A program made the position numbers and the translations under genes. From contig OZ076409.1 of assembly GCA_964187785.1 (NCBI GenBank), forward strand, positions 930,001-994,000: a stretch of DNA of 64,000 bases, given 5' to 3'. The notes under the pieces were generated by a model, which did not search any database, had not been told where the DNA came from, and saw nothing but the letters and a program-made list of their open reading frames with translations. This DNA comes from Amphiscolops sp. MND2022 (taxonomy: Eukaryota). The first letter of the stretch is position 1, and the number at the start of each line of letters is the position of its first letter. Of this stretch, positions 1-41,350 are shown piece after piece.

Positions 1-2
1 AG

Positions 3-170
3 AGAAGAACTTACTTCCTAAGTACGAACTTTCATCAAGAAAACAGCCTCTAGTAGTAGAGAAGAAATCACTCCATTTATCAACGGTTGAGAACGCCAAG
101 TCATTCTCTTCTCTACTACTAGAAGCTGCTTTCTCGGTATGAGTTCGTACTAAGGATGTAAGTTCTTCTA
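3..170. repeat. Imperfect ~70-bp inverted repeat (long hairpin, MITE-like)
   Basis: Arm 3-72 (agaagaacttacttcctaagtacgaac...ctagtagtagagaagaaatcact) is the approximate reverse complement of arm ~99-170, with a ~25-nt loop. Confidence 0.75.
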
Positions 171-2380
171 TTTGTCAGTTCAAGTCATTGAAGCGTTGCT
201 CGATTCGAACCTTTTCATGATCTCTCTCACAATCAATCATTTGTTGATCATTGTTTCTGGCAATTAAGTTTTGCGAATCCAGGCAAACTGATGTCACCGA
301 CTTTATCGCTATATTCATCCATATTAGTAAAATTAGCTTGGTTGTTGCTAGCACTATGAGCTCTGGTGATCACGATTTGGAAAGTTATCTGAGTTTAAAT
401 ATTGAAATATTGAATTGATGAAACAAAGATGGTTTTGAAGGAAAGTGTTTATGTATAGTAGTGTAACTGTTTTGAAATCAAAGATGAATACTGAGAACGT
501 CTGTACGTGTTGCAATCCAAAAATCGTACTGAATTTCATTCGTACCTTTTGCGGTACTCACTCCTAATTATGCTTCGTTAGTTATCTGCTTTATGATTGG
601 TCGTTACATCAGGTGTTAATAACAGCGCAATTACAACTGCACGTTAAAGTTGTCAATAACCAACATATACATGCACATATATGTTTATTTGCGCCTGCTA
701 CAAACTAATTTGAGTAATTAGTTATCGATTTGCACTGCATTGTGGTAATAACACTAAATTATTGCAACTTCTAACCACGGTTGAGGTAATTTTACAATGA
801 TGAACGATTTTTTCTAAATGTATACTAAGCGACGCTTCAAGTACAATTGATGACCAACGACAATAGTCGTTGTTTTGTATTTCGATGCTTTCACAGTAAT
901 GAGTATTAAAACTACTCAATTGTAGAATTCGATGTTTCTTGACAAAAAATATGAACTGTGTTGGTTTTCATGAAACTGTTTGAATACTTGGCGACCGGTT
1001 AAGCCAGTCGTCTTGTCCTTCTTCTAATTGTTCCATGAATATTGATGAAATAAATGGTTGAGTTTTTGAGTTTGTGACGAGTGGAGGTAGTAGTCGTTCG
1101 TTCTATTCATGCTTTCGGGCATGACATAATGGGAGTGATAAATGGTACCATTTCGATACTCTCAACCTCAGGTTTACGCAACAAACGAACGGGCCTTATC
1201 TATCCCTCTCATAACCGTTTCTACTCAAACCCTTTCCTCTCAAAAACAGCTGAAAGAAGAAAACTCCATTATAGTCGAACACCTACACAGAACTTTCTAT
1301 TACACCTGTCTTCAGTGGCTAAAAATTCACATCAGTCATTTTGTAATAATTGAGGAAAAATTCTAGAGATGTTGAAAAATAAGAATTTACATGGAAAAGC
1401 ACGAGATTTAGTGCCATCGATGGATCTATAGTATTCGCAGCAGCCTTACTTTGCTGAGAATAAAAACCTTTTCTGTTCAATTGCACTTTCCAGTGTTGAC
1501 TCTGCGGGCTGTAGAAAACAACAAAAAGCAGCAATTAATACAGTTGAGAGCTTAAAGTTTGCAACAGTAGTCCGCTGGATGATCAAAGCACCAATTCCCT
1601 CTTCGCACAGACCATTATAAAGTGTTGGAAAATTACTTCCTTCAACTTGAACTTTATTTTCTGTGAGCGTCTGGTGTGGAAATTGAATACGTTAACACCA
1701 ACAGCAGTTCTTACCACTTAGCTTGGACTCGTTTGCTTTTAACTTTCCTCTAATTGCTCAAAATTTCGAACTTCTGAAGTTTTTTGAAGCTCCAATTTTG
1801 CTACCTTTAAAGGAATGCATATGTGTTAATGTTTTCCTTATGCATAGTTATAACCACAGTCTTTATTCAATCGAAATTTGTTATGTATTTACATGCCGCG
1901 GGCCTGCGGCCAATGTGTATTGCTTATTTCGAAAAAAAATAGAAAATTCAGAGACCTTGCTGTGAAAGATCTTGTAAAACTTCCCTGCATCTTGGAAAAT
2001 CCTGTCAGCATCTCACTGTTTTTTTGAAAAATGTCCCTTCAGCTTGTAAAGTCTTTGGAAAAAACGATTGGCTACTAATGGAAATAATGACGATGCAAGC
2101 ATAGACTATTTTTGGAGAAAAATCGATTCAGCGTTGAAAAAAAAACGGGAAAACGCTGATTGTGCTCATTTATCGTTTTTCTGCTGTAATTTCGTCGTAA
2201 ATGCAAGGAAAAAAGATGCGAAGTAGTGGGAAAACAGCCGTGGGATGCCAACTGCAGATAAAAGTTGCAGATAAAGTAAGAAAAGGGAGGCTGTTGCGGT
2301 TATGGTGTTACATGTACTTCCGAATTGGATGCATTCAGTATTGAAGGGGGTGATTTTTTTCAGAAGGTGATTTTTTTCAG

Positions 2381-2481
2381 GTGATCAAAGTGACGGTGGG
2401 AGTGTTTCTGGTCTTCACCATCTGCTGGCTACCCCTCAGACTGTACCAGGCCATCAAAATCATGTACCCCCCAATCACCAG
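2381..2481 (+). CDS. Exon of a class A (rhodopsin-like) GPCR, TM6; tachykinin/neuropeptide-receptor-like
   Basis: Acceptor tttttttcAG, donor GTAAAT. Translates VIKVTVGVFLVFTICWLPLRLYQAIKIMYPPIT, with the TM6 CWxP motif. Ends in phase 2 (AG). Confidence 0.85.
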
Positions 2482-2982
2482 GTAAATATTGCACCCAACA
2501 GCCCCACCCCCCACGCCAGCTGCTAGTCATCAAAAACAGTCACATGTTCCTCAATAGGCGAAGCAAAAAAATCCATGCAGGTACTTTTACTCGCGTTTAA
2601 TCATTCGATAACTGCGTTTACTTATTCCTAGAGAATGAAATTCTTTATTAGTTAATGATTAAACGTAAGCAAAAGTAACTGTATGGATCTTTTTGCTTAA
2701 GATGCTTCTCTTGATCTTAAGAGCTTCTCCAATTGGGGATAGTCAGAGAAAATTGCAAGTTTCATTGCGGCATTTTTGTTGCACATTTCAAAGTCCCACT
2801 GAATTCCAAGATTCTTGAGAAAAATTCATCATGTTTTTTATACAGCGCTCTAGTTTTTCATACCATCCAGTGAGTTTTTAATAGTAAACTACAGTTAAAT
2901 TGCAAACAAAACAAAAATCCTGGCAATTTGCAAATAAGGAAACGTGATATCACTAATCATAGATTTGACGCTAATCGCTAAT

Positions 2983-4797
2983 TGTCATGCCAGCATGATG
3001 GAAATATAATCTACTAAATATCTGTAATGTAAATAATATGTCTTATGTACTTAGATATGGGCAATATGATGTCATATAATAAGATCTATGGTTGTGAGCA
3101 ACCCTACGTTACTTGTACCTAACCCCCCATTCCCCATTGAGATTTTGAGCTATTTACTTATCTAAATACTGAGCATTCTAGTTCCGTTTGTCCGCAATTC
3201 ATGATCGTGCTAATAAGCAAATGATGCTATTTTATATTTAATAGCTTGTCACGAGAAAGGAAAGTAGTCTCTCGGTCAAACTGGACCGCCATAACGAATA
3301 GACAAGATGGATACTCGCTAGGGAACTCCTGCCTCAGAGGAAACTAGCGTGACAAGCCTCCTCTCTTTGGAATACATGAAACGATGAAATAAAGATGCTA
3401 TTAGTGCTAGAACTCGTGATTTGATTCAATCTAACTGGTTTCATCCATATTACATCGCTCAAACACGACCAGAACACCAAAAACGAGAGAATTGAAAAGA
3501 CGATGTAAAAGCGATGAAGCTACTTGATTGAATACTTGTGACCACATGTTTCATCGTTTATGCATCACTCACGCTTCTAAGCCCTGAAGAACAGTGCTAA
3601 ACTAGCGAACGATGGAAAAGCGATGGAAATCTTTCATCGTTTTCTCATCTACAGCTAAAATCACGCTTCTAGACCTGACTACAGTGCTGAACGGCGAACG
3701 ATGGAAAAGCGATGGAAATCTTTCATCGCTTTCCCATCTATAGCAAAAATCATCTTTTAACGATGATAAAGTGATGTAACTACTCCAGAATTATATTCAG
3801 TGCTCTCCCCGTAACTCAGTTCATCGTTTTCACATCTAGTTGATCACTTCAACACTAGAGCGAAGCTCATTCATCATTTCTGCATCCACAGACATACAAA
3901 CAGAATCAACTAGTGAAAACGATGTCTAAACGACAAAACTTGTTATAACTTGCATTTTAATCAGTTCAACGATGAATAAACGACAAAACTTGTCATAATT
4001 TGCCTTTTATCGATTCAGTGCTAGCAAATCATCATTTATACATCCCCGTGCCTCCGAATTTGAACTCTATCCATTTTAGACACTAATTTAGCGCAATTGC
4101 AGTAACTATCATGACTCAGAGAACGCCTGCTGACATTAGTTCATTATAAATTCATGATAATTGATTTGAATTGTGTTATTGCGCAATTGCTAATTGGTAG
4201 CCCTCTTGCGGCATGCAAAACAACCGGTCACGTGACCAAGTGCTAATTAGCACTCACCCGACATCCAATGAGAAGGAAGCGATGGTAAGAATTGCGTCTT
4301 ACCATCGATCTGGTGAGAAGGCTACCAACTAAGACACACGATTTGCTATACCAGCACGATACACTTACATTCTCTGTTAGTTCTACAACACGTATAAAAT
4401 TGCCTTAGTCTTACTACATACTCTCATAATTCAACTCTTATCCGACATTCCTGTTTTTCATTGCTCATGAGTGTCGAATCTACTAAAACACTTCGAAACG
4501 GAAAAGTATTATCTAATTCTTTACCAGAAACTTCCTCGATCGACGCGAATAATATTCCCAATATTAACATGGAATCCTCAAATAATTTCTCAGAAGGGAT
4601 AAGCCGATCGGGTAGGAATTCGCCGACGAACGAAGATCATACTCAAGCGGCGAACGAAGAAAGATTTAATCGTCTGCAAGACGAAATGTCGATACTGAAG
4701 TCTCTGATGGAAAAGATCATCAGTCAAAACGAGGAACGAAACAAGCAAAACGGTGGTTCCTTTGCGACGTCGTCTTACGCCGTAGGGACCTCCAACA
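2983..4797 (+). repeat. 5' LTR (1815 bp)
   Basis: Begins TGTCATGCCAGC, ends GACCTCCAACA. Nearly identical to 17449-19263 (about 14 substitutions counted by eye). Contains an ~90-bp tandem duplication at ~3570-3750. Confidence 0.97.
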
Positions 4798-5948
4798 TGG
4801 TGACAGGAGTCAACAGGACTCACAGAAATCAACGACATCATTTCCAAGACGAAGAAGACGAAGACGACTACGAAGACGCACCCAGCAACACTACGGAATC
4901 TGCACTGCTCAACGCCATCCAGGATCTGCCTCGAAAATTGCAGAAAACCAACACAAAACTTCTTCAAACTCACGTGCCAAATTTCCGCGGATCAAAAGAC
5001 AAATACAACGAGTTCGAACACTTACTACTCAATCATTTCCGCCCCATCGCCAATAAAATCACGGAAGAAGATAAAATCCACTTCTTCCAGAGCTTACTTC
5101 GAGACGAGGCCATCGATTTTTGGCAAACTATCACTATAAGCTCAACAACGACACTGCAAGATGTCCTCCAACTATTCCGAAAAGAATTCGCAAAAGAAGA
5201 CATGAGGGAAGTTGCCAGATACAAATGGAACGAAGCCAAATACGACCCAACCACTCAATCATTCGGAGACTTTCTAAAAGACCTTAAGAAAATCGCCAAA
5301 CAAGCCTATGGCGACGAAGCTGATAAATGTATCAAGATGTTCCTTTTCGGAAAATTACCCGTAGACATCCAACAAGAGCTGACGATGGCTAATAAAGAAG
5401 ACAGCAGCCCTGAAGAGATAAAAACATACCTCCTCCGAAAATACCAATACCAAAACGTTATACAACAATCAACTTCGACATACCAGCCGTTCAACCAGAT
5501 GTCCGATAACAGCACCAAAAAAGAATTCACCCGATCTGACCAATCCCAATCCAAAACCGAGAACAAACAAAAAGGCAAATGTTTCTACTGCGGGAAACAA
5601 GGACATAGAAAACAAGAATGCCGAGGACGACAACGAGATGAGGCTAATGGCACAACCAAACCAGACGCCATACAACCAGCCAAACGACAAGACGACGACA
5701 AACCGAAATACAATCCAAAACTCGTTTGTCAGATTTGCGGATACACCGGACATTCCGCTAGAGATTGCCGAAAACGAATTCCCAAACAAACCAGCACTCC
5801 ATATGGACAACTCCCATACAAACGAACTGACGACCAGGAAAACAAAGAAAGACGACGTGAATTAAAACAACAACAACGCCCAATGAACCAACTGGAAATC
5901 CAAGATGACAACGCAGACCTGTCCTCAGAAGAACAGGATTTTCAGTAA
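4467..5948 (+). CDS. gag: Gag with two CCHC zinc knuckles
   Basis: ORF 4461-5948, first ATG at 4467. Capsid-like core (VPNFRGSKDKYNEFEHLL...LLRDEAIDFW); knuckles CFYCGKQGHRKQEC and CQICGYTGHSARDC. Confidence 0.93.
   Translation: MSVESTKTLRNGKVLSNSLPETSSIDANNIPNINMESSNNFSEGISRSGRNSPTNEDHTQAANEERFNRLQDEMSILKSLMEKIISQNEERNKQNGGSFATSSYAVGTSNMVTGVNRTHRNQRHHFQDEEDEDDYEDAPSNTTESALLNAIQDLPRKLQKTNTKLLQTHVPNFRGSKDKYNEFEHLLLNHFRPIANKITEEDKIHFFQSLLRDEAIDFWQTITISSTTTLQDVLQLFRKEFAKEDMREVARYKWNEAKYDPTTQSFGDFLKDLKKIAKQAYGDEADKCIKMFLFGKLPVDIQQELTMANKEDSSPEEIKTYLLRKYQYQNVIQQSTSTYQPFNQMSDNSTKKEFTRSDQSQSKTENKQKGKCFYCGKQGHRKQECRGRQRDEANGTTKPDAIQPAKRQDDDKPKYNPKLVCQICGYTGHSARDCRKRIPKQTSTPYGQLPYKRTDDQENKERRRELKQQQRPMNQLEIQDDNADLSSEEQDFQ
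4798..4810 (+). promoter_or_regulatory. Primer binding site (tRNA-Leu-like)
   Basis: TGGTGACAGGAGT directly after the LTR-terminal CA. TGG pairs with tRNA CCA, and the rest resembles the complement of tRNA-Leu 3' ends (recalled, not searched). Confidence 0.7.
5936..5942 (+). other. Putative -1 ribosomal frameshift slippery site G_GAT_TTT at the gag/pol junction
   Basis: GGATTTT lies just before the gag stop. The -1 frame is open from here to the protease ORF at 6125. Confidence 0.65.
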
Positions 5949-7282
5949 AGCCACAATTTCACTCCGCGAACAACCAACGTGCGCACCCATACTCTGACTC
6001 AACAACTCACTCTACTCGACAAACTCAACACAATCGTCTTCAGAGGTCTTGGCAGCCCTCTGGTGATTCCCGCAAAGCAGACGAAGTCTATCTGCGAAGA
6101 CACAAACAACCCGATGAACAACCGATGAAGTCGATGAAAACCAACAACAGGTTCACTCCATTGGAAAATTCACACGATGAGCAAACGATGAACTGGCATA
6201 ACGACGCATTGAGGCCTGCGCACGATGCCAAAGAGATGTCCCCACATCTACAATCAACAGACCGACTCTCAACCGATGACAAATCGACAAAACGAATTAG
6301 TAGTAAAACACATGCAAACGACAAGAATAGTATTCCAAAAACTAAAAAACATGCAACCAATAACCAATTTCACGTGCTTAGTCCCACTTTACATTTAAAT
6401 AAAAAGGATAAGATGTTGTTTGTCCCCCTCCAGTTTAACAATTACGAGAACCAAGGTCTTTTAGACACCGGAGCAGTGCAAAGCGCACTCTCAGAAGCGG
6501 AATTACGCAAAATCACCTCTGCTCATCCTGAAGCAGTGCTAGACGAACTACCACCCCCTAACTTTAAAGTTCAGATAGCCAACGGCAATCTAGTCCCAAT
6601 TCGAAAACAAGTTCTTTTGCGCTTTTTCATAGCAGGAAAAGTCTTTGAAGAAGTCTTTTTAGTCCTCCCCACGATGGGAACGATACTGATTGGCATGTCG
6701 TTTTTTGAAAAATACTCTGTCAACCTGGACATTAAAAATCACCTAGTCCATTTCCCTAATCACATGATGTCAATGCAAGTGAGACAACAGACGAATAAGA
6801 AGTTCAAAACTGGGTTAATTGATTTGTATTCCAGCTGCAGAACAATCATCCCTCCCCGCCATCAAGTACTGATTGAGGTCCACAGTGACGCGGACATCTC
6901 ACGTACAACTGGCACGGTCGAAGGGACTCCAGCATTCATGCGCAAGACGTGCCTCTTGGTGTCTCCAGCAGTGGTTGACCTAGACGATGGAAAAACGATG
7001 ATTCAGGTCACCAACCCCAATGAGCACGTGTACACACTCGAGGCCAACACGAACCTGGCCAATTTCAGAATACCAACGCCCCATCAAGCAGCCAACATAA
7101 CGCCGATGCCAGTAGAGCACTTGAAGTTGATCACAGACCACCCCGAGGATGCAGCAGCCGTGATCAATCAACTTTTTGTGAATCCGGAGATGAAGTCTAC
7201 AAAATGGTACCCGACGCCAGAGACGTGTAGTGAGCCAGACAAACTCAACCAGATCGAAAGACTCAAATTTCATTTTCGATGA
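5936..7282 (+). CDS. pol: Pol N-terminal part: aspartic protease plus beta-rich linker
   Basis: LLDTGA protease motif and ILIGMSFF. Separated from the RT frame by a frameshift near 7260-7275. Confidence 0.88.
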   Translation, partial: GFSVKPQFHSANNQRAHPYSDSTTHSTRQTQHNRLQRSWQPSGDSRKADEVYLRRHKQPDEQPMKSMKTNNRFTPLENSHDEQTMNWHNDALRPAHDAKEMSPHLQSTDRLSTDDKSTKRISSKTHANDKNSIPKTKKHATNNQFHVLSPTLHLNKKDKMLFVPLQFNNYENQGLLDTGAVQSALSEAELRKITSAHPEAVLDELPPPNFKVQIANGNLVPIRKQVLLRFFIAGKVFEEVFLVLPTMGTILIGMSFFEKYSVNLDIKNHLVHFPNHMMSMQVRQQTNKKFKTGLIDLYSSCRTIIPPRHQVLIEVHSDADISRTTGTVEGTPAFMRKTCLLVSPAVVDLDDGKTMIQVTNPNEHVYTLEANTNLANFRIPTPHQAANITPMPVEHLKLITDHPEDAAAVINQLFVNPEMKSTKWYPTPETCSEPDKLNQIERLKFHFR

Positions 7283-10200
7283 GATTGTGGCTCTCAGAGA
7301 ACTGGAGAAGCTCGATCCCGCCCGCTCCCATGACGAACGAGTCAAGTTCCTGCAGAACTTCAAGTGGGACGAATCGCTTCTCTCTCCGTCTCAACAAGCT
7401 CAGGTAGAGGAGTTGCTGGTAAAGTACAACTCCATTTTTGCTAGACATCGTTTAGACATCGGCATGAATACTGATTTTAAGGTAAAACTAACTCCCCAGC
7501 ATGAAGAACCAGTTTACTCTCAAAGTCTCCCTACTCCCACTAACCTAAAAGATGACTTGCTTGTAGAATTAGCGTTAATGCAGGAGTACGGGATTATAAC
7601 TACTCTTCCTTGCAGCAAATACTCTTCACCGATATTTGCACAACATAAACCGAATGGTAAACTAAGGATTTTAGTTGACTTGCGGAGAATCAACCACCTG
7701 ATCAAGAACGATTACGGAGAACATAACCACCCCGTTACAACTGTTGCAGACGCTGCTCAGCATATGGCCGGGAAAAAATACTTCTGTAAACTAGATTGTT
7801 CCCAGGCCTACCATTGCATTCCAATGGCCGATGAGCAGTCGATACAACTTTTGTCTTTTAATTTTGGATCACGTACCTTTGCCTTTCTTAGGCTAGCTCA
7901 AGGTCTTAACCGTTCTCTTTCAGCCTTCACGAGCGTAGTCCGTGAGTACTTGGACCCCTTGGTCAAAGCGGACCGCTGTGCCCAGTATGTTGACGACATA
8001 GGCATAGCAGCAAACACGCCTGATGAATTGATTGAAAATTTAGAACTTGTTTTTCAGCAGTTGACCAAAGCTGGATTGAAACTCAGCATGAATAAATGTG
8101 AATTTGGCCAACAGCAAATTGAATACCTTGGCAAATCTATTTCTAGCACCGGAATAGCACCCATCGAAAAACGAATAACAGATTATTTGAAAAAGCTCAA
8201 ACCACCCAATTCAGTTAAAGCTCTCCAACGGTACTTAGGATTTGTCAACTTTTACAGGTCCTATATTCCCCGGTTGGCCGACAAAACAGCCGTTTTTCAC
8301 GAGTTAATCAAAAAAGACACCATTTTTAAATTAGAACAACGCCACAAAGATGTAATTTTTGACATCAACGAAAGTTTACTCAAGGCTACTAAACTGTCAT
8401 TGAAACTTCCCCTCCCGGACAAACAACTAGTAATCATGTGTGACGCGAGTGAGCATGCAGCAGGTTATGTCCTTCTGATAGAAGACTACTCTGAAACACA
8501 ATCGGGTAGCTTAAAGAAGTACGCGCCAGTTGCCTCTGGCTCTAAGAAATTTCAGGGTGGACAGATGTCATTAACAATGTACGCCAAAGAGTTTTTGGCT
8601 ATGCATTTCGCATTCGATGAGTTCGGTCACAATCTGTGGGGTTCGAAGAAGCCTATAATTGTAATGACAGATAATAAAGCACTCACCCGTTTCTTTCAGG
8701 CCAAACACATACCACCGTCACTTTGGAATTTTTGCGACCAGACACTCCAATTTAATTTTATTTTAGCACATGTACCAGGTATCGAGAATCCCGCGGCGGA
8801 TTACCTATCCAGATTGGAAATTAGACCTGAAGAACGTGTTCATTTAAAATTAACTGATTCCATTCCAGTCCATTACATAGAGATCGACATTGCCTCGAAG
8901 ACGCCAAAGCAGGAGGACGATGAACCAGACTACTTCCCTCCAAGCGAACCACTGAGACAGAGGAAGTCACACAATGTAAAAACGATGAAAGTGACCAACC
9001 CTGAGACACTGATGCTCGACGATGGCAAACCGATGAAAACAGTTGACGTGGAGACGACGACAATTAATGACGATGACAAAACGATGAATTGTGTAAAATC
9101 AGCACCACAGGCCTCTGAGAACGACCACACAAGCTGCCCTCAGATCTACCGACTCATGACTGATGATCAATCACCAGTGTACACAAAATTCATCATTAAA
9201 ACATCGTTACTAAACCCAGTAACGAAGGAGGTTAGCCCCTCCGGGGGAGTCGATCTAATTTTAGCTCAAAAAACAAATAGCGACATACAACTGATGTTAA
9301 AAATTTTGTCTGGAGAAACTACCTTGAACCACTCTGTAAACTTGATGTCAATTTTTTTCCAAAAACTTCACAAAATTCGAAAACGCCTTGAAAATGTAAA
9401 CGGAGTCCTGTACCGTATCTTTTATGACCATACAGGCCTTGAGTCCCATAAACAAATTGTTGTACCTGAACAAGTGATGTTAGAAATAATCAGGTTTTTC
9501 CACAACAACCCCGTGCAGGGACACCCTGGTTCTAAAAAGATGCTACATGAACTACGAAAACGCTACTACTCTCCCAGTTTAGCCGAAAAAACACAAAAAA
9601 TTCTAGAAAGTTGTGAAAATTGCATGCGATCAAAATCTACGAATGAATCAAACCTACGCCCGCCGTTGCAGAAGATATACGATCCGTGTAACGGCCCTAC
9701 TGACCTTCTGGAGATAGATATAGTTGGACCACTGCCCGCTTCGAACGGCTTTACCCACATTTTGACCGCAATCGACGTATTTTCGCGTTATATGTTTGCC
9801 GTACCACTGCGTAAACCTGACACAAAGTCTGTTATCAACGCCCTTCTGTCGGTATTCGCCAAACACGCATACGTTCCAACACACATCCTCACAGATAAAG
9901 GATCCGTTTTCACCGCTGAACTGTTGGAACAACTCATAAAAACCGCCGGCATTGAAATCTCCCATGCAACGATAAAACATGCACAAACTATAGGCATGGT
10001 CGAGAGAAGTCATGCAAAACTTAAAAAGATTTTAAAAATACATGTAAATGTAGACAGACCACAATGGGACCGCTATGTCGACATAGCAATCATGGCCCAC
10101 AACACCACGTACCACGCTTCTCTGAAATGTTCACCAACTGAGATCTTTCACGGACGCACTCCATACAACGCTTTGGACCTAAAATACTCTAACCCTGAAA

Positions 10201-11105
10201 GAAGAGTCGACACCAAATTTGGAGACGTCAACGAAATCTTAGACCGCATGAACGAAATTTACCGCGACAACACCGACAACATAGTAGCTGCGTACCACAA
10301 GTACAAAGCTTACTATGACAGAAAAGCCAAAGCCCAACCTCTCAAGGTAAACGACTTTGTTTTCCTACTTGACCCCAAATACGACTCTCAGGGTTGTAAA
10401 GAAGAGTTCAAGACCTTCCACTGGAAGGGTCCGTTCAAAGTGATGAAAGTGCTATCCGACAGTAACTACATCCTTCGGAAAGTAGGAACGTTCAAGACAC
10501 AATGCGTTCATCGCATACGATTGAAAATTTTCAAACCAGAATTCCCTGTAAAAGACGTAGACATTGGTAACCAGCCAGTATACGCTGACACGGATCGCAC
10601 TGAAGACTCTGATATTTTCGACTCGCACGTACCGAGACAACCTGAAACAACCTCGGAACCGGATGAACCAGAAACTGATGAAGAAACACCAGTTGACAGA
10701 GTCATTCGACTAAATTCTCCAGATTACAGACAGGCACTCAGACGCGACAGACCGCTAAATCGACTACCGAACCGACTGTCGTTAACACCACAACCGGAAA
10801 TAATCATCGACGACCCACCTCAAAAAGGCCCACAGGTGCAGTTCAATGAAAACGATGAGATAATTCCACAAGATATCACTGAAGACACATCAAAACCGCC
10901 AAAACCATTAAAAATACCTACCAACACCGAGACACCCCAACAGGTGAACAATGACGAAACGCCAAATCTGATAGCAACAAGGACAAATAAAAGCAAATAT
11001 AGTCTACGCGAAAATCCTCAACCGAAACGCTACTCAGACTTCCTAATTCACGAAATCTCAACTGCTCGAAACGCTCTACGTAAAACAAACACTGTTCTGC
11101 AGTAA
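7230..11105 (+). CDS. pol: Pol: reverse transcriptase, RNase H, integrase
   Basis: RT LRILVDLRRIN / KLDCSQAYH / YVDD; RNase H CDAS...TDNKAL...ADYLSR; integrase H-H-C-C (HNNPVQGH...CENC), IDIVGP / TDKGSVF / VERSH DDE core, GPF motif. Confidence 0.96.
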   Translation: MSQTNSTRSKDSNFIFDEIVALRELEKLDPARSHDERVKFLQNFKWDESLLSPSQQAQVEELLVKYNSIFARHRLDIGMNTDFKVKLTPQHEEPVYSQSLPTPTNLKDDLLVELALMQEYGIITTLPCSKYSSPIFAQHKPNGKLRILVDLRRINHLIKNDYGEHNHPVTTVADAAQHMAGKKYFCKLDCSQAYHCIPMADEQSIQLLSFNFGSRTFAFLRLAQGLNRSLSAFTSVVREYLDPLVKADRCAQYVDDIGIAANTPDELIENLELVFQQLTKAGLKLSMNKCEFGQQQIEYLGKSISSTGIAPIEKRITDYLKKLKPPNSVKALQRYLGFVNFYRSYIPRLADKTAVFHELIKKDTIFKLEQRHKDVIFDINESLLKATKLSLKLPLPDKQLVIMCDASEHAAGYVLLIEDYSETQSGSLKKYAPVASGSKKFQGGQMSLTMYAKEFLAMHFAFDEFGHNLWGSKKPIIVMTDNKALTRFFQAKHIPPSLWNFCDQTLQFNFILAHVPGIENPAADYLSRLEIRPEERVHLKLTDSIPVHYIEIDIASKTPKQEDDEPDYFPPSEPLRQRKSHNVKTMKVTNPETLMLDDGKPMKTVDVETTTINDDDKTMNCVKSAPQASENDHTSCPQIYRLMTDDQSPVYTKFIIKTSLLNPVTKEVSPSGGVDLILAQKTNSDIQLMLKILSGETTLNHSVNLMSIFFQKLHKIRKRLENVNGVLYRIFYDHTGLESHKQIVVPEQVMLEIIRFFHNNPVQGHPGSKKMLHELRKRYYSPSLAEKTQKILESCENCMRSKSTNESNLRPPLQKIYDPCNGPTDLLEIDIVGPLPASNGFTHILTAIDVFSRYMFAVPLRKPDTKSVINALLSVFAKHAYVPTHILTDKGSVFTAELLEQLIKTAGIEISHATIKHAQTIGMVERSHAKLKKILKIHVNVDRPQWDRYVDIAIMAHNTTYHASLKCSPTEIFHGRTPYNALDLKYSNPERRVDTKFGDVNEILDRMNEIYRDNTDNIVAAYHKYKAYYDRKAKAQPLKVNDFVFLLDPKYDSQGCKEEFKTFHWKGPFKVMKVLSDSNYILRKVGTFKTQCVHRIRLKIFKPEFPVKDVDIGNQPVYADTDRTEDSDIFDSHVPRQPETTSEPDEPETDEETPVDRVIRLNSPDYRQALRRDRPLNRLPNRLSLTPQPEIIIDDPPQKGPQVQFNENDEIIPQDITEDTSKPPKPLKIPTNTETPQQVNNDETPNLIATRTNKSKYSLRENPQPKRYSDFLIHEISTARNALRKTNTVLQ

Positions 11106-11200
11106 GTAGAAAACGGCAGAAAACATGTAAAAGACGATCTCACATCAAATCGATGGTTAAATAACACTCCATCGTGAAGAAACAGTAACATTACGAAAAA

Positions 11201-12140
11201 GCGATGTAAATCCGATGGAACTTTTCCATCGGAGCCACATCGCCAGCAATCCACTGAAAAGACCAAAAATGTTTAAATGATGGATCACGCCCACCGTTTG
11301 TACATCCTTACCTTCTCTTTGACCATGCCACAGTAATATGCTGAAGCTTTCTCATCTGGTTATTAGTAATTCGTAGGCCTCGCCTCGTGCCAACTCAGGT
11401 AGGTAACACAGCCGCTAGCACGGTTCACACAAATGTACACATGAAACGATGGAAAACAGATACGCCATCGACCTCTTTAAAACAAAACAGTTAAACGATG
11501 TAAAAGTGCTGGAAATCCTCCATCGTTTCTACATCCCCCTATCTCTCTACACTTACCTTCAATAAAAAGAGAATCAATCCTCAATCGTCAACAGACCATA
11601 GGCTTTGCCTTGGGTTGACTCACGGTTCATTACCGCCCTGATTGAGGACACCGAATACATACAAATAATCCCATTAAAAGGATCATAAAACGCCAAAGAA
11701 TGAGAACGATGAAAAAACGATGGAAATCCTTCATCGTTAACTCATCGTCAAATTCTCCCCAACACAAACGTACCTAGTCATCAACTAAACGATGCGAATA
11801 CGATGAAAATGTTTCATCGTTCTCTCATCGTTGCACTTACCACCAGACGAACCAAACACACTAATCGCAACGATGCCAAAACGATGGAAAATCCCCATCG
11901 TTCACATCACGATACACGAAACTACCTAGAAAGTACTACGATGGAAAAACGATGGAAATTTCCCATCGGTTGCCCATCGCTGATAAAATCCTAAGAAAAA
12001 TTCAACAATCCTCACTCAACGATGGAGTATCGATAAAATCTCTTCACCGATACACCCATCGTCTCCTAAATCAACGCCACACTCACAAAACCCTCCAGAA
12101 CGATGTGATTACGATGGAAATTTCCCATCGCCTACACATC
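11201..12140 (+). repeat. Array of ~45-nt CGATG...CATCG hairpin units with unique spacers, downstream of pol
   Basis: Units start at ~11201, 11494, 11705, 11788, 11869, 11937, 12018, 12099; the last six are 68-83 nt apart. Consensus aACGATG-N4/5-ACGATGgAAAT-N3/4-CATCG-N4/5-CATC(G). Confidence 0.85.
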
Positions 12141-12536
12141 TCTTCAAAAGTACATGAAAACGATAAAAGCATGTAAATAAACGTCCACACATGAAAATTA
12201 AACGAATACATTCTCTGCTAAGCGGAAATACAAACGAAACATGCATTCCAAAAGGTGCTCCTATACCGCCCTATCAAACAACCTTATAAACTGTATATGG
12301 AACAAAAACCAAAACTCAAAGCCCTTACAAATTCCTTGAACTTACTCGAAACAAAAGATCGGAGTAAAAATCAATTACCCACCGAATTACACAGTCTTCA
12401 ATTTAAAATTCTCTCTATCTACAAACGCAAATGGCCAACAATGTTAATACAGTGTAAGCGCTCTGCACTTACCAAACAGAATAAAATGTACATAATCTAT
12501 CAAGTTCACAGTCTAACAAAATAAATATCACGATCT

Positions 12537-15500
12537 TCAAATTCTGTGTTCCCCTCCAATTTCTGGACTTTCAACTCTTCCTCCTTCTACGGTAAAACTC
12601 ATTCGTTCCATAACTGAATCTCGGTATCCATCCGCAGCGACTCCTCCGACTTCCTTCCATAACTCTCCCAAAGTAATAGTCCGCAAATCATTCACTCTTC
12701 CAAGAGCAGCTACACATTCCGCCACTAATCCATCCGGAATACTTTGTAGACTCCTCACTCCACGAGAAGTACACCAACTCAGAACAGTACGGAACATGCT
12801 TGACAATGACTCTGACGATAGACTAGGCAAACCGAAATTATCCAGATTCCAACTCTGGCTGACTCCACCACTCAAACAGAACACAAACTGCATCAATCGT
12901 CTCAAACTCACATTAGTCGCCCCATACTGCCACAATTCGTGCTCATGCCCAGATAAATCATATTCTGCCACGTGGTCATCTCTAAACTGCCCAACAAACC
13001 GCACAAATGAGTCTATCATAGCTGTCTTTTCGGCATACAACACTCGACCACTACACTCTAGAGCTTCGACTAAATAACCGACAGTCTCTTCTAACTCCGA
13101 CACACGTCCATACATCAGAACTTCCGGACTCCAACAACTAAGTGCCATGTTAATTTGATCGGACACCTGCGGCATCTGCAGAAGATTGAGAGCAACTGTC
13201 ATAAAAAATTCTTCGACAACAGTGACTGCATGTTGATATTCCCCCCCACAAGGATAATACACTCGGTGCGACTCAAAAGTTCGAAACATAAGCCCTTCTT
13301 TTGCAGCACTCAAACGAAGACTGCTTAGCCGAAAATTTGCCCAGCGTTGCAATTCGTAAGCTTGAGGTACCGTCCCAGGCTCAGCAACCAGCAGACACAG
13401 CTCACGCACTGCAGCAAATACCTCGTAGACAATGTGTAGCCCTCGATACAATCCTTCACCAAAGGTCCGCTTCATCTTCTCAAACACTAAAACAGACAAG
13501 AACAACGATAACCAACGCGATTACAAGAAACGATGTCTTTCCAATGAATCCAAAGTATTCCTATTTTCTTGTCTTTGTATATCACAGTACTAAAACAGGA
13601 CGATGACGAACAGATGCAACATACCTACAAATCCATAATTATCTTAATAGTACTTCCACCCAACTTAGTTACAAATGAAAAACACCAATAATAACCGATC
13701 GTATACACCAATTCCATAGCATGCAACTTGAGCGACAGTCCAACTTCCTTCGAGATCAGTAGCTCCATCCGCAAGGGATCCACACTTCGAGACACATGGT
13801 CAAGCCGTTCCACCAATGCCAATATGTCGTTCCACGATCCTCGCAACTCGTTTAGTACCGCCACAATTTCCCAATTCGAAATCTCGCCATTCACAGTACA
13901 CTAAAATAAAACACTCAGAAAGTCAGCCTAGCCATAAACATAAAAATCCATACACCCTCCATCCTACACACGAAACCACTCTCACGCTAACAGATCAAGA
14001 TCCCTAACCCATACGACTTAAAAATTACATCAGAAATTCATACTAACACGCAACAATGCAGGACAAGATGATAAGAGGGGATCAGTCATACTATCGCGCA
14101 GTTTCGTCAAAAAGAAGTTCATAACCACATGCACGTCCTGCCCAGGGAACACAGACAATCCAGTCGTAGTAACCACACGCAACAATGACTCCAACTGCAG
14201 TGGATTCACATCCAAACATCTCCGTCCGCCTTCTTTCTCCATTAATCCTCGTATTGAAGGCACTTTTACACAACTGAAACCCACTGGCGCAAGCTCTTCT
14301 GCAAAACAACACCAGTAATCCGCGAGCCACTCTGACATCCTCTCTTCCCAGTCTCTGATAGCTACAAGCTCGAACAACACATACCCTTGCAACGCCTCGG
14401 TGTCCGCTACTGTCACTGAACATCGAACCACATTCCGCTTTAGCTCCAAATAGAAACCAACAGGGCACTCTCCACATAAAGCCATCGAAATAGATCGTAC
14501 CACGTATGGCCATACCCCGAAAATCAAAAGCGCCTAAAACACATGTAAAACAAAATAACCAAACAGAACTAACACCAGCACACCGTTATAACACAAATAT
14601 CACCCTTGTTCTAAGCAAATTCACACATACAAACATGTAACCTATGTAACACATGTATTTCATGTAACATATACTCACAATAACGTCCTCTTTTCGACAT
14701 ACGCCTCCGAAGAGACTCCCGTAGGAAGCATCAGTTGTTGCGACGGAATCCCATAAATCTGTGACGCTCGTAACATCTCCGCCTCGGTAGAGAGCATCGA
14801 CAACGAAACACAGAAACAGACGCAAACTGCGCTCGCTGTCAGGCACTTCGAGTACACCCGAGTCCCAGATACTGCCGCCTCTTGCTTCCGCCGCAAACAC
14901 CTCTTGCACCGAAAAAGCCGGACACACCTCCACATCTGGCACAGATAGACCTCGAATCTCTTCTTCCATGTCCGCTGCTTCCACGGCGCTCATCATTGCC
15001 CCGGTCCTCCGACGCAGAAACAAACCACGCCGAGAACGCACAACGCAGTCTAACTTGTGATGGACCACACCACGACAATGCTCTAGAAAGGTCGAAAGGC
15101 CTCGGCTCCCGACCTTCAGATCACTCCGGCACAGCAGACATCGTACGTACGCATCGGACGACCTATGAGTCCGTGCGAAACCCAGAGACATCCCTGCGTA
15201 CGGATCTTGGAACCAGCTTGCTCTAATGCTGTTCCTTGCAACTAAAACAAAGTTTGATGATAAAACGATGAAACCCCTCGCTCTAGCAGCTAACCCACGT
15301 TCTCCGCTTGCGTAAAACGATGAAAAAACGATGTTTTCACTTAACGCTAACAACAAAATTAGAACGATGAAAAACCGATGTTTCTACTGCAAAAAGCCAG
15401 AAAACGCCCTAAGACGACAAAAGACGGCCACCAAAACGCAAAGTACGAAAAATAATCAAAAACCCGAAAACAAAACTAAAATGTTTAACTAAACACTTCA

Positions 15501-16492
15501 ACCGATAAGTTCAGTAACCTGATAACATTAACATATTGAAATTACGGTGAATCACATGATCCTTGAAGCTGTTTAGTTTAACTGACCGAACGAGACGACG
15601 GGTGGAAACTACAGCATTGTCAACAGATGAACTGCCCCCGTCAGATGTGCTTGATTCATCACCAGCAGACAGGGCTCCTGGAACTACACAACCACCCACA
15701 ACAGCCTCAACACTTGATACACCAGCATCCATCGGAACTTGCTCTTCTGCATCGACGCCTGCTGGATCCATTCGACTGCTGGGTGAAGACTCAATTGAGA
15801 ACTCACGTACTGTTTGTGTGGCGACACTCTGCGGAGCCCCTTCCTGGTCAGAACCACACGCCACAGACATCATGTGGCGAACGACAGGCCTCTCCAAGCC
15901 ATACGCCTCTCGCGGGACTGAAAGCAACAGAGTTCATCATTGTTACATCGCGGAATCCACTTCGCTGACAAAGAGATGAATCTAATGCGAATCCACTTAA
16001 ATTGCTACAACAGGCGATTTAAAACCACGAATACAAACAAAAGTGTCACTTACTGGCACTGGCAAGCTCTTCTCGCATTACATGCCGAAAGTAACCGTCA
16101 TACCAATGCAATGACAGCGACCCAAGAGATTGCTGCCACGGAGAATACACTGAAACGACATCATGAATGAATAACGATGATTGAACGATGGAGAACATAA
16201 GTTGGCACACTTCTCGAAAAGAACGGCAGTCGACTCACTCTGTGGATACAAGGGCATGAACGGCTGAGGTCCCGATGGAGTCTGAATGGGCGTCATGGGC
16301 CCCACCCCCGTCAGTTGGGTATACACCCTAGGGCTCCCAGACCCAGAAGGCGTCGCTTGATCTGCAACAGCTAAACGAAATTTATCCACATTAGAGTTGC
16401 ACCAATCCACCACAGACGTGAAGATGAAGAATGAATAACTAACGAATTGGGTTAGAATCACCGAAAGGATTCATATGTTGGTCGTCATACAT
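12537..16492 (-). CDS. Spliced antisense accessory gene of the retrotransposon (~1016 aa; BED-like zinc finger plus hAT-transposase-like body)
   Basis: Hand-built exons on the minus strand: 16492-16444, 16370-16197, 16149-16054, 15917-15587, 15306-14679, 14533-14048, 13900-13629, 13589-13525, 13486-12537. All introns GT-AG, all phases compatible, 3051 nt with no internal stop. The 5' exons are less certain than the last five. Confidence 0.8.
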
Positions 16493-17448
16493 CTTGACGA
16501 TGACAAATGGAAACAACGATTGCAATCTGAAAGAAAACACGACACGATTGAAAGAAGGATAGTAAATGTGAACTCAATTTGAAGAAACGAAATCAACAGT
16601 AATCGACAAATATAATGGCCTGATCAACCGTGATATGAGATCGATTTCAACCTTAAAATATCAAAGAAGCAAAACGTTTCGACTACATCTAACAATACAC
16701 TCTCAAAAGACAAAAAATCTGCTCAAAATTCTTCAATATTGATTCAATTTCACTGCCTCCTTCCACCAACTAGCAGAGGAAACACCAGTTTGAATGGACC
16801 AATTTACTCAAAATACTGTGGAAATTTTCTCAAAGTGTTAGATGCAGCTGCCAGCGTCGTTAGCAATTTGAATGATTTACACACTCAGCGGAAAGACGCA
16901 CTCGAAATTGTGGCTACTTTATTTACTTAATAACTCATCAAGATAACTGAACGTTTCCGTCTCGCACACAGTTGGCATTACTGCCGCTCCACCACGCAAG
17001 TTATTACATAATATTTTGTTCACGCTTATTCAACTCTCCATCACAAGTTCATCGCTCTCCGGTCACGTGTTATTCATTCTCTCCAATCTATCAGACGAAA
17101 CGATGCTACCAATTCCAATTGTGAACAAATTCCAGCGAGATTCTACAAATCACTCCTGACAGCTATTTTCAAGCCGATCTGCGGACAATCGACGGGCCAA
17201 GAACTAGAACTGACGCGTCCAAACTTAACCGAAATAACCGAGCTCACACCAGATACCAAACCGATGAAACACGTCTCCTTCTCAGAGAAGACACAAATGA
17301 GACAGAACCAACGAAGGCACAAAACCATTGAGAACCAACGAAGGCCACTCCCCTGAGACCAGCGAAGGAACATGTCAAAGCCCACGCTGCGACAACCATC
17401 CTCTGCACATTTGGCCCCTGCACTCCTCTTCCAAATTCCCCCCGGGAG

Positions 17449-19263
17449 TGTCATACCAGCATGATGGAAATATAATCTACTAAATATCTGTAATGTAAAT
17501 AATATGTCTTATGTACTTAGATATGGGCAATATGATGTCATATAATAAGCTCTATGGTTGTGAGCAACCCTACGTTACTTGTACCTAACCCCCCATTCCC
17601 CATTGAGATTTTGAGCTATTTACTTATCTAAATACTGAGCATTCTAGTTCCGTTTGTCCGCAATCCATGATCGTGCTAAAAAGAAAATGATGCTATTTTA
17701 TATTTAATAGCTTGTCACGAGAAAGGAAAGTAGTCTCTCGGTCAAACTGGACCGCCATAACGAATAGACAAGATGGATACTCGCTAGGGAACTCCTGCCT
17801 CAGAGGAAACTAGCGTAACAAGCCTCCTCTCTTTGGAATACATGAAACGATGAAATAAAGATGCTATTAGTGCTAGAACTCGTGATTTGATTCAATCTAA
17901 CTGGTTTCATCCATATTACATCGCTCAAACACGACCAGAACACCAAAAACGAGAGAATTGAAAAGACGATGTAAAAGCGATGAAGCTACTTGATTGAATA
18001 CTTGTGACCACATGTTTCATCGTTTATGCATCACTCACGCTTCTAAGCCCTGAAGAACAGTGCTAAACTAGCGAACGATGGAAAAGCGATGGAAATCTTT
18101 CATCGTTTTCTCATCTACAGCTAAAATCACGCTTCTAGACCTGACTACAGTGCTGAACGGCGAACGATGGAAAAGCGATGGAAATCTTTCATCGCTTTCC
18201 CATCTATAGCAAAAATCATCTTTTAACGATGATAAAGTGATGTAACTACTCCAGAATTATATTCAGTGCTCTCCCCGTAACTCAGTTCATCGTTTTCACA
18301 TCTAGTTGATCACTTCAACACTAGAGCGAAGCTCATTAATCATTTCTGCATCCACAGACATACAAACAGAATCAACTCGTGAAAACGATGTCTAAACGAC
18401 AAAACTTGTTATAACTTGCATTTTATTCAGTTCAACGATGAATAAACGACAAAACTTGTCATAATTTGCCTTTTATCGATTCAGTGCTAGCAAATCATCA
18501 TTTATACATCCCCGTGCCTCCGAATTTGAACTCTATCCATTTTAGACACTAATTTAGCGCAATTGCAGTAACTATCATGACTCAGAGAATGCCTGCTGAC
18601 ATTAGTTCATTATAAATTCATGATAATTGATTTGAATTGTGTTATTGCGCAATTGCTAATTGGTAGCCCTCTTGCGGCATGCAAAACAACCGGTCACGTG
18701 ACCAAGTGCTAATTAGCACTCACCCGACATCCAATGAGAGGGAAGCGATGGTAAGAATTGCGTCTTACCATCGATCGGGTGAGAAGGCTACCAACTAAGA
18801 CACACGATTTGCTATACCAGCACGATACACTTACATTCTCTGTTAGTTCTACAACACGTATAAAATTGCCTTAGTCTTACTACATACTCTCATAATTCAA
18901 CTCTTATCCGACATTCCTGTTTTTCATTGCTCATGAGTGTCGAATCTACTAAAACACTTCGAAACGGAAAAGTATTATCTAATTCTTTACCAGAAACTTC
19001 CTCGATCGACGCGAATAATATTCCCAATATTAACATGGAATCCTCAAATAATTTCTCAGAAGGGATAAGCCGATCGGGTAGGAATTCGCCGACGAACGAA
19101 GATCATACTCAAGCGGCGAACGAAGAAAGATTTAATCGTCTGCAAGACGAAATGTCGATACTGAAGTCTCTGATGGAAAATATCATAAGTCAAAACGAGG
19201 AACGAAACAAGCAAAACGGTGGTTCCTTTGCGACGTCGTCTTACGCCGTAGGGACCTCCAACA
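17449..19263 (+). repeat. 3' LTR (1815 bp)
   Basis: Begins TGTCATACCAGC, ends GACCTCCAACA, followed by TSD CTAAT. Confidence 0.97.
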
Positions 19264-19286
19264 CTAATAGCGCCGCTTTAGCGTAA
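18933..19286 (+). pseudogene. Copy of the gag N-terminus carried in the 3' LTR, running into flanking DNA
   Basis: Matches the first ~110 gag codons (MSVESTKTLRNGK...AVGTSN), then diverges at the LTR end. Confidence 0.9.
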
Positions 19287-20849: not shown

Positions 20850-22252
20850 TTCTCCATTGACCAGAAAATCCCAGATGATTGGAACATAGCTGTCATTATC
20901 CCGTGCTATAAAAAGGGAGACAAAGCCAAATGCTCCGACTACCGTGGAATCAGCTTGATCGCCATTGCCCTGAAGGTTCTTGAAGCGGTCATCAAAAACC
21001 GTTTGGAACCATCTTACACGAACGCTGCCCGGATAAACTAAGCCGGCTTTAAGAAGGGTGGCGGCAAATACTGAAACAACGATATCAGTCCAGTCGATGG
21101 ACCGTCCTAATCTTTATCAGTTTCAAGGCGGCCTTCGACAGCGTTAACCGAGAAGCTCTCTGGACAATACTGTCGAACCTCGACCTTCACCCCATCATCA
21201 TTAACATCCTAAGAACCATGCAGGCAAAAGCAACCAGGAAAGTACGCGTAACCAACACCCTCTCACGCGATTTCGAAATAGCGAACGGAGTACGTCAGGG
21301 ATCAATAATTGGCCTATTTCTTGTTAACCTGGCGATTGATTGGATCATGCAAAACGCCCTTTGTCATGGAATACATGGTATTAGTCTAGACGATACGTAC
21401 GTGCCGTACCTTGACTTCGCCGATGATATCTGTCTTCTGGATGACAACGCCGAAGATGTTCAACCCTTACTCGTTAGTGTTTTCCATCAGCCCAAAAATT
21501 TCGGCTTGAAGATCAACGCGTCAAAGACCAAATTCTGCTCCATTGACCCCAACATCAATATCACCTGCTCTGGCGAACAACTGGAAAGAGTAGAAACATT
21601 CACCTACCTTGGCTCATCGATACAACCTGATAGCGACATCGCAGGAGAAATTAAACTCCGTTACGCGAAGTCTCTCGGCTCGATAAAGAAGCTGATAAAA
21701 TTCTGGCGTAGTCGCAATATTTCAACAACGATCAAATCAAAAGTTCACCACGCTTGCATCCGGAGCTCCCAACTGTATTGCTGTGAAACGTGGCCACTCA
21801 TAACATCTGTTATTAAAAAACTGGCAGCTTTGAGATCAGATGCGCCAGATCCATTCTCCACCCTAGTCGCCCCATCAAGACTTCTGACATCCGTGGAAAT
21901 CTTCAACTCGATAGCAGCGTCTCCAGGACCATCCAGAAGGACAGACTGAAATGGCTTGGTCATGAACTCCTCCATGTCCCCACTACTCTTCCAAACTCCG
22001 CCCTAGAAAAGGGACCCGACTGGACACGTCCCAGGGTCGGCATGAAGTCTGGTGAGACCTAGTCAAAGCGGATCTCAGCTCCATCCTCAAACCCGTGAAA
22101 ATGAATAAAGAAGTCTGGGACGCAGAATGGTTCTCGTTGGCCAGCGACGCGGCAAGAAACAGGCGCCAGTGGAACGCAATTATTCGTGACGTGCAAGAGG
22201 CGGGCAATGGGCAGTGACTGCTTGATACGCCCTAACTGGAACTGGAACTGGA
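20850..22252 (+). mobile_element. 5'-truncated, degenerate RTE-like non-LTR retrotransposon (LINE)
   Basis: PDDWNIAVIIPCYKKGDKAKCSDYRGISL, GVRQGS...NLAIDWIM, LDFADDICLL, FTYLGS, YCCETW. Stops and frameshifts present. 3' tail of (AACTGG)x3 at ~22233-22251. Confidence 0.88.
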
Positions 22253-40581: not shown

Positions 40582-40681
40582 GTGAGTATGGTGAAATGAA
40601 AAAACTATCAAAAAATTGGTGTTTGCTAACTATAAAAACAAAATAGACGCTTATTGCATTGTTATATGTTCGCTTGAAATA

Positions 40682-41350
40682 CAGTAGTGTGAACAAAAAC
40701 CGACCCTTTAAGCGATGAGCGTCGTTATCAACCAATTAGAATTGTTTATTTGCTCTCACTTTCAATTCTCATTGGCGCATCAAGTGGCAATTCAGGCGGA
40801 GATAGAACCTTTCAGACCTTTCCTAGTTTTGAGCAGGTTTTTGAATTGTTTTTCGGAAAATTTTAGATTCAGTGAATTCTGCAGATTGTCTAGAATCAAG
40901 TGGTATGGCTTTTGTGACATTCTAAGATGATATAATGAACGCAGTTTTTCAACGCGAAAATTTAACCTAATTTTTCATGTTGATACTAAATTGAAGAAAT
41001 TTCACTTTTCGAGCCTGATATTTCAAAATCGGCTGATCAATTTTGAAATCGGAATTTATCTATGGCTTCAGTAGATTTGGGGAACTTAATCGAGTATAAA
41101 ACATACCAAAACAGCTGTATGTAAAACACAGAAATTGGAAGAACGCTATAGTAAAACCAAGTTCCAATTTGGCTCAAACTTAACTATATGTAACTTTCAC
41201 AACTTTCATCTAAGAAGTTTGGAAAATACTAATGTAAACTAGATAAAATTCTAAGAAGCTTTTATTCTTTGATGTTATTCAAAATTTTCAACCATTTTCG
41301 AGAGAATCGAGCGTAAAAACGCCCGGGAATGATTTTGTATTCACACTACC
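40682..41350. mobile_element. MITE, diverged relative of 52571-53244
   Basis: Starts cagtagtgtgaa. Shares internal sequence (gtcgttatcaaccaattagaa...aatgtaaactagat) with the 52571 copy. Confidence 0.7.

Follow-up and report, generated by a model that had tools for sequence, protein, structure and literature searches.

A probable spliced antisense gene between pol and the 3' long terminal repeat of a Ty3/gypsy retrotransposon clade in Amphiscolops sp. MND2022

A Ty3/gypsy retrotransposon of 16.3 kb was analysed in a stretch of 64,000 nucleotides (nt) from Amphiscolops sp. MND2022 (assembly GCA_964187785.1, contig OZ076409.1, positions 930,001 to 994,000). This stretch is called the window here, and all coordinates are those of the window. 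On the strand opposite to gag and pol, at 12537-16492, between the end of pol at 11105 and the start of the 3' long terminal repeat (LTR) at 17449, the element carries what is very probably a real and conserved gene. Taken as a whole, the observations are probably best explained by a clade of Ty3/gypsy elements with a genuine spliced antisense gene between pol and the 3' LTR. The map conserved among copies has eight exons and seven GT-AG introns and codes for 938 amino acids (aa) in 2817 nt.

The preliminary description of this DNA had joined nine minus-strand segments (16492-16444, 16370-16197, 16149-16054, 15917-15587 and 15306-14679 as exons 1-5; 14533-14048, 13900-13629, 13589-13525 and 13486-12537 as exons 6-9) into one stop-free frame. 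The join was reproduced exactly, with 3051 nt, 1016 codons and 0 internal stops, and all eight gaps run from GT to AG at the lengths given (73, 47, 136, 280, 145, 147, 39 and 38 nt). An open path taken alone is weak evidence for a gene. Where exon 7 meets the last exon, the frame of the window copy stays open under 177 different solutions with one or two GT-AG introns, and among the sister copies listed there are 114-259 open solutions at the same junction. The matter was therefore settled by comparison with other copies in the genome. When the assembly (1.07 Gb in 1929 contigs) was searched with 315 codons of the last exon, at least 128 matches were obtained, 38 of which span nearly the whole length of the query at 56-100% identity; 28 of these 38 are stop-free. 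The whole gene was compared in 10 full-length sister loci (L031-L040), together with one distant lineage and two short pieces.

Exons 2 to 7 and the last exon are found in identical order in all 10 sister loci (last-exon identity 56-98%), and the splice sites between them recur at conserved places. Exon 1 (16444-16492, 49 nt; all exons are on the minus strand) contains the ATG and ends at a GTTAGT donor; this short exon, in phase 1, lies on the open path and can be placed in the window copy and in seven of the eight sisters examined. Exon 2 (16239-16370, 132 nt) is followed by GTGAGT, or once by GTAAGG, in the window copy and in eight of the nine sisters having both exons 2 and 3, and the second intron spans 89 nt (16238-16150). 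The acceptor TTTCAG and the donor GTAAGT bound exon 3 (16054-16149, 96 nt) in the window copy and in the 9/9 sisters having this exon, and intron 3 reads GTAAGT..TTT(C/T)AG throughout the same set. Exon 4 (15582-15917, 336 nt) is acidic, serine-rich and poorly conserved. The donor of intron 4 is GTAAACTAAACA in 12/12 sisters, including the two short extra loci, and its acceptor is TTT(T/C)AG in all 11 copies listed, with the spacing just upstream of this exon-5 acceptor differing by 1 nt among copies. Exon 5 (14679-15241, 563 nt) is the most conserved, with a ratio of nonsynonymous to synonymous differences per site (pN/pS) of 0.15-0.19. Both ends of intron 5 are at the conserved place in the window copy and eight of ten sisters, and those of intron 6, like both splice sites of exon 6 (14048-14533, 486 nt), in the window copy and all ten. 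Exon 7 (13696-13900, 205 nt) has a GTTATT donor in the window copy; in this copy and 9/10 sisters it is 205 nt long, ends at GTTA and is followed by one intron of 188-250 nt (13695-13487 in the window, 209 nt). Exon 8 (12537-13486, 950 nt including the TGA stop) equals exon 9 of the nine-segment path.

The eight-exon map is likewise open in the window copy. From exon 2 to the end, it is in frame and stop-free in five of the seven copies modelled, and full open reading frames (ORFs) from ATG to stop, of 938, 936 and 926 aa, are present in three types of the gene-bearing cassette. Splice sites and open frames thus recur among cassette types that are just 55-80% identical in protein. Conservation of splice sites among other genomic copies had been named beforehand as a check on the gene, and it was found.

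Three further features of this region were observed. Intron 4 begins with 18 nt (GTAAACTAAACAGCTTCA, 15564-15581 on the minus strand of the window) that are nearly invariant among the window copy, L031-L040, L043 and L044, the first 12 being identical in 12/12 sisters, whereas the exons of these cassette types are only 55-80% identical. The start of this intron is conserved beyond what a donor needs, which suggests that it also acts in cis on one of the two strands. Upstream of the start codon by approximately 35 nt (16528-16493, minus strand), an acceptor-like TTCTTTCAG is present, so that an additional non-coding 5' exon, closer to the 3' LTR or within it, may exist. Locus L035 (G000:C4:23280186-23287124) contains an internal duplication of about 970 nt over part of exon 5 and exon 6, as judged from two matches each for exon 5 and exon 6 and from a gap of 972 nt in its pairwise alignment.

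The pattern of substitution points to selection on the protein. Over 945 nt of the last exon, 28 of 30 copies can be aligned with no gap, and 22 of those 28 are free of stops; the mean pN is 0.200 against a mean pS of 0.618. The median ratio of nonsynonymous to synonymous substitution rates (dN/dS) is 0.27 over the 75 pairs with unsaturated dS. A dN/dS below 1 among sister copies, likewise proposed in advance as a check, was found for the last exon. The other reading frames of the last exon give 1.0-2.1, with the exception of the reverse frame that shares the wobble positions (0.28, at lower pS). Between cassette types, pN/pS is 0.11-0.61 for every exon and lowest for exons 3 and 5. Furthermore, the last exon has 0 gaps in all nine pairwise nucleotide alignments, as against numerous ones in the introns and the flanks. 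ORF-style protein predictions from public assemblies are conserved exactly from the acceptor to the donor of exon 5.

The gene appears to belong to the element. Among near-full-length last-exon matches, with 85 of 29,037 pol candidates scored, 32 of the first 46 have the C-terminus of pol on the opposite strand at a distance of 1375-2054 nt. A distant lineage (L042), with 29% identity in the last exon and 51% in the C-terminus of pol, retains this tail-to-tail arrangement along with the order of the exons, homologous splice sites and the zinc-finger-like motif encoded in exon 5. In base skew, the gene region agrees in sign with gag-pol despite the opposite strand, which fits long residence in the element. 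The earlier view of a maintained accessory gene in the place of env is thus supported by the conserved splice sites and frames, purifying selection and the constant tail-to-tail position relative to pol.

The element has a mosaic structure. When the window element was compared with the commonest sister type, identity is 94% over 7190-11830 and 94-99% from about 16300 into the beginning of the LTR, whereas in the cassette between them (11830-16300) it is 46-81% at the nucleotide level. The right boundary of the cassette is sharp, at about 16300 within exon 2, and the left one lies within an array of palindromes. Between the same two elements, dS in pol is 0.02-0.05, as compared with a pS of 0.67-0.80 in exons 5-8 of the antisense gene. 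Since this gap is one of synonymous divergence, faster protein evolution cannot be its cause; it reveals old cassette lineages that were recombined onto closely related backbones.

The palindrome array occupies the spacer that separates pol from the antisense gene (11151-12130), where eight bipartite palindromes or hairpins with a CGATGG..CCATCG core are found, and two more are present in each LTR (3621-3728 and 18087-18194). The unit is about 40 nt long, with an outer stem ACGATG..CATCGT and an inner stem CGATGGAAA..TTTCCATCG. The core has 12 matches against 0.35 expected, and the half-site AACGATG occurs 55 times against nine expected, with 49 of the occurrences inside the element. Folded as RNA, the palindromes have z scores of -2.9 to -6.6. 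Between five and 10 copies are present in the corresponding flank of 29 of 30 sister loci. Palindrome motifs were also seen inside the antisense gene, in introns 2 (16173-16190) and 4 (15264-15369).

The surrounding LTR retrotransposon (2983-19263), named as such in the preliminary description, is real and complete. It is flanked by the target-site duplication CTAAT (2978-2982 and 19264-19268, read directly and identical). Its LTRs (2983-4797 and 17449-19263, each 1815 nt with TG..CA ends) are 99.2% identical in a self-BLAST comparison. On the plus strand follow gag with a CCHC zinc knuckle (4797-5948), a protease frame of pol (5909-7282, Pfam aspartyl protease) and a frame for reverse transcriptase (RT), RNase H and integrase (7194-11105, Pfam RVT_1, RT_RNaseH, Integrase_H2C2, rve and Integrase_p58_C). 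This order, together with the LTR ends, the duplication and the gag knuckle, places the element in Ty3/gypsy (Metaviridae). An animal host is also evident from the assembly itself, in which matches to the Wnt family score up to 163 bits and no chlorophyll a/b-binding match was obtained. A related single ORF (P0062) matches the protease frame with residues 1-258 and the RT frame with residues 260-1514, and runs unbroken over the two window frames. The pol frameshift claimed earlier for this copy is thereby confirmed, with the frame change at approximately 7262-7272. The gag frame is already open for 400 nt inside the 5' LTR (4398-4797), and four in-frame ATGs (4467, 4569, 4686 and 4707) fall in this part. 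One more ATG, at 4797, spans the junction of the LTR with the TGG of the primer-binding site, and there are several candidate gag starts.

The predicted protein is about 926-938 aa long. Its first 205 residues have a proline, serine, threonine, glycine, glutamine and acidic fraction of 0.55, as against 0.38 elsewhere, and this N-terminal fifth, rich in proline, serine, glutamine and acidic residues, is probably disordered. Exon 5 encodes a zinc-finger-like motif, CX2CX16HX5H(H)X3C, followed by a basic stretch (15045-15140, minus strand). Residues C34, C37, H54 and H60 of the motif are conserved in at least 90% of 28 sequences, and the CX2CX16HX5H spacing is typical of BED fingers. Only one or two hydrophobic windows, both borderline, were seen, at about residues 391 and 639, and no N-terminal hydrophobic or signal-like segment was found in the predicted protein. 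The C-terminal part is large and mainly helical: the model of the last exon has a predicted local distance difference test score (pLDDT) of 72, and its residues 11-205, modelled as all-helical, reach about 90.

Several identities were considered for this protein. Pfam gave 0 matches for any antisense exon of the window at an expectation value (E) up to 0.01, and the TRP28 domain (Transposase_28, PF04195) matched no exon at E up to 10. Clusters labelled as viral RNA-dependent RNA polymerase-like were proposed for the last exon (Atlas 0.93, low recognition) and found no support from fold or profile. A Spin-doc/GT2D2/BED finger proposed for exon 5 (Atlas 0.76) was not matched by hmmscan with PF18658 or PF02892; a genome search with PF18658 matched none of the exon-5 loci, and hhalign against an ORF of the same genome with a Spin-doc finger gave a probability below 1%. 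That ORF (L045, G000:C7:41633000-41638400, positions 1-3234) is a frame of more than 1077 aa with a SET domain and a Spin-doc-type zinc finger, unrelated to the antisense gene by hhalign. The finger had five identical-scoring matches in ORFs of 832-1122 aa, which may be a multi-copy or transposon-derived family. hAT transposases have an RNase H-like catalytic fold with a helical insertion and a C-terminal dimerisation domain; the transposase of Hermes (hAT) was aligned at Z 4.9-5.1, within the background for helical models, only the last exon being well modelled. The gene was not taken for a retroviral or errantiviral env, as it is antisense, its N-terminus is rich in proline, serine and glutamine, and its hydrophobic windows are merely borderline. 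Nor was it taken for a nested DNA transposon, no flanking inverted repeats having been found around it. Among 1.84 billion protein representatives, 47 relatives were identified, all from ENA assemblies, all of at most 367 aa and all single-exon ORF fragments; no annotated multi-exon protein with a domain of the antisense gene was found among them.

How such a gene may be kept within a retroelement can be outlined. Introns of an antisense gene read CT..AC on the sense RNA and are therefore not removed from the genomic RNA; they are copied in each round of reverse transcription. Since the introns survive on the genomic RNA, expression would be possible only from integrated DNA, by means of an antisense promoter of the gene's own, perhaps in or near the 3' LTR as the preliminary description proposed. 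Selection on the element lineage has probably kept the gene for a long time, and recombination has moved deeply diverged cassette types among near-identical gag-pol/LTR backbones. As to its role, the favoured though tentative proposal is that the protein binds nucleic acids and regulates how the element itself is transcribed or replicated, by analogy with retroviral accessory proteins and the antisense extra ORFs of plant elements, and the bipartite palindromes in the LTRs and the spacer would be candidate targets. A more specific possibility, which we regard as rather unlikely, is that the zinc-finger protein is a trans-acting, sequence-specific regulator recognising the CGATGG..CCATCG palindromes and that the cassettes are "specificity" or "immunity" types, which frequency-dependent selection would keep together and recombination would swap between backbones. 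If true, this would be a retrovirus-like accessory-gene system with modular evolution inside a non-infectious animal element.

The exact structure of the gene bears on the first rival explanation, that the nine-exon, 1016-aa map is right, including its 39- and 38-nt introns, and that the gene is fully intact in the window copy. In its favour, the path contains no stop and each gap has GT..AG borders, yet three of the eight introns are not conserved in the sisters and the exact map was not borne out; the parts affected are exon 8, the two mini-introns, 42 nt at the end of exon 2 and 65 nt at the start of exon 5. The exon-8 segment has no tblastn match in nine of ten sisters, matches to its exon 7 end at residue 54-75 of 90, and the exon-8 stretch aligns in the manner of an intron (at 42-62% identity, interrupted by gaps of 1, 15 or 20 nt), in a place where the sisters have a single intron following an exon 7 of 205 nt. 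The map also uses a weak donor for intron 2 (GTTCTC) and a weak acceptor for intron 4 (CAAG), neither of them conserved, and strong conserved sites are nearby, namely a GTGAGT donor 42 nt before the former, and for intron 4 a donor 5 nt later and an acceptor 65 nt later. There are, besides, hundreds of alternative open paths. The window copy itself lacks GT at the conserved donor of intron 4 (15580-15581, minus strand), which all 12 sisters have, including its three closest relatives (95-98%), and the earlier claim of an intact gene in this copy is not supported. With that donor gone, the window copy could use GTCAGT, a cryptic donor 5 nt upstream, and the frame is by chance restored by the weak acceptor, which lies 65 nt upstream of the conserved one. 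On balance, the nine-exon map is very unlikely. Given the loss of the intron-4 donor and the pol frame change, "intact" therefore fits the frame, not necessarily the gene; the window copy looks like a young insertion beginning to decay, and its antisense gene is probably impaired.

The remaining rivals accept the conservation and explain it otherwise. A host gene captured by transduction or nested insertion could be a passive passenger whose conservation reflects recent copying only, and its unknown origin, the host-like introns and the absence of an assignable function would agree with this. Such an account is unlikely, because synonymous sites are saturated between cassettes and yet the frames, the splice sites and the low pN/pS are kept; the gene is also present in the lineage with 51% identity in the C-terminus of pol, where a passenger would have decayed, and there are no terminal inverted repeats at its flanks. 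It might also be the antisense RNA that is selected, as a source of double-stranded or small RNA tuning the element, with the open frame being secondary. Hairpin motifs in the introns and the spacer would suit this idea, and regulatory antisense transcripts of retroelements are discussed in the excerpted parts of PMC7264820. The excess of pS over pN and the absence of indels over the 945 nt in 28 copies are nevertheless a protein-coding signature, and stop-free frames of 926-938 aa are kept in three deeply diverged types, which makes selection on the RNA extremely improbable as the whole explanation.

A genuine spliced antisense gene thus remains the preferred reading, and several points that weigh against it are stated here. 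Its splicing, promoter and polyadenylation are all deduced from the genome, and no canonical poly(A) signal is present within 400 nt of the stop in six of seven copies. The whole-gene comparison is limited to the 10 full-length sisters, the single distant lineage and the two short pieces; four of the ten (L032, L034, L035 and L036) are rearranged and were excluded from exon modelling, a nonsense codon and a 10-nt deletion disrupt L031, and a frameshift disrupts L033. The selection measured between copies combines the effect of selection on lineages with that of neutral decay once a copy has inserted. Pfam matched none of the exons of the window, two sisters and three distant homologues at E up to 10, and profile searches of solved-structure sequences returned nothing meaningful. 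With the last-exon model, Foldseek had no match at E <= 0.001 in PDB or viral models, and the best Z in a wide VIA-align search was 6.1 (N-terminal domain of XerD), below the stated background for helical models. The model of exon 5 has a pLDDT of only 49, leaving the zinc finger to be recognised by its sequence motif, and any link between the protein and the palindromes is one that we purely infer.

Comparable genes are best documented in plants. Antisense ORFs between pol and the 3' LTR are described in Ty3/gypsy elements such as maize Grande (gene23), rice RIRE2, Retand (a Silene plant element with a TRP28 domain) and PvRetro13, and a nucleic-acid-binding or regulatory role is suspected for them and unproven, according to the excerpts of PMC7264820 and PMC11963269. 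As an opposite-strand coding region between pol and the 3' LTR that is conserved in most copies, the present gene can be assigned to the class aORF-3R. It resembles the plant ORFs, as far as the excerpted texts describe them, in place, orientation and presence in most copies of a family, and its element resembles theirs in an unusually long region from pol to the 3' LTR that holds repeat arrays. It differs in its animal host, the lack of any relation to Pfam families or Transposase_28, the seven introns and the length of about 940 aa. Introns go unmentioned for the plant ORFs in the excerpts of PMC7264820 and PMC11963269, and deep cassettes on near-identical backbones are not described for them in the same excerpts. 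In fungi, brtn is an additional antisense gene of Boty-like gypsy elements in Botrytis cinerea (Zhao et al. 2011, Virology 417:248, as mentioned in the excerpts of PMC7264820 and PMC8365987). The likeness, drawn from mention only, is that of an extra antisense gene in a non-plant Ty3/gypsy element, brtn being fungal. No animal or multi-intron antisense extra gene was found in the openly accessible literature, with subscription journals mostly outside the search.

The antisense proteins of deltaretroviruses are small basic leucine zipper (bZIP) proteins of exogenous vertebrate retroviruses, and HBZ has a spliced form. The genes in question, HBZ of human T-cell leukemia virus type 1 (HTLV-1) and APH-2 of HTLV-2, use an antisense promoter in the 3' LTR (excerpts of PMC7264820), and the product is nuclear and regulatory (excerpts of PMC11963269). 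Like them, the gene described here codes for a protein on the minus strand and lies between pol/env and the 3' LTR; unlike them, it has no bZIP or other recognised domain and has seven introns. With env of retroviruses and errantiviruses it shares the slot between pol and the 3' LTR and the exchange of a module between backbones. It differs from env in lying on the opposite strand, in being acidic, in its zinc-finger-like motif and in lacking an N-terminal signal-like segment.

Outside the element, a second RT fragment is present just past its end (21053-21949, Pfam RVT_1, E 3e-18), which is a remnant of another retroelement and the sole match among the 13 long ORFs in the rest of the window. 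Self-BLAST also detected two dispersed stretches of about 650 nt (40678-41327 and 52567-53218) that repeat each other in direct orientation at 74% identity. Rfam had no match in the window.

Apart from env, little is understood about the additional genes of LTR retrotransposons, and the antisense ones have been documented from plants and one fungal family. The present antisense gene family, with many open copies in one genome, offers unusually clear comparative proof of splicing and selection. It also carries a caution for annotation, as repeat masking hides such genes and only single-exon fragments of this one are present in 1.84 billion representatives. Its protein is without recognisable relatives, and the palindrome array provides a concrete candidate target for it. 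Finally, diverged cassettes on near-identical backbones let one ask what selection maintains the different types.

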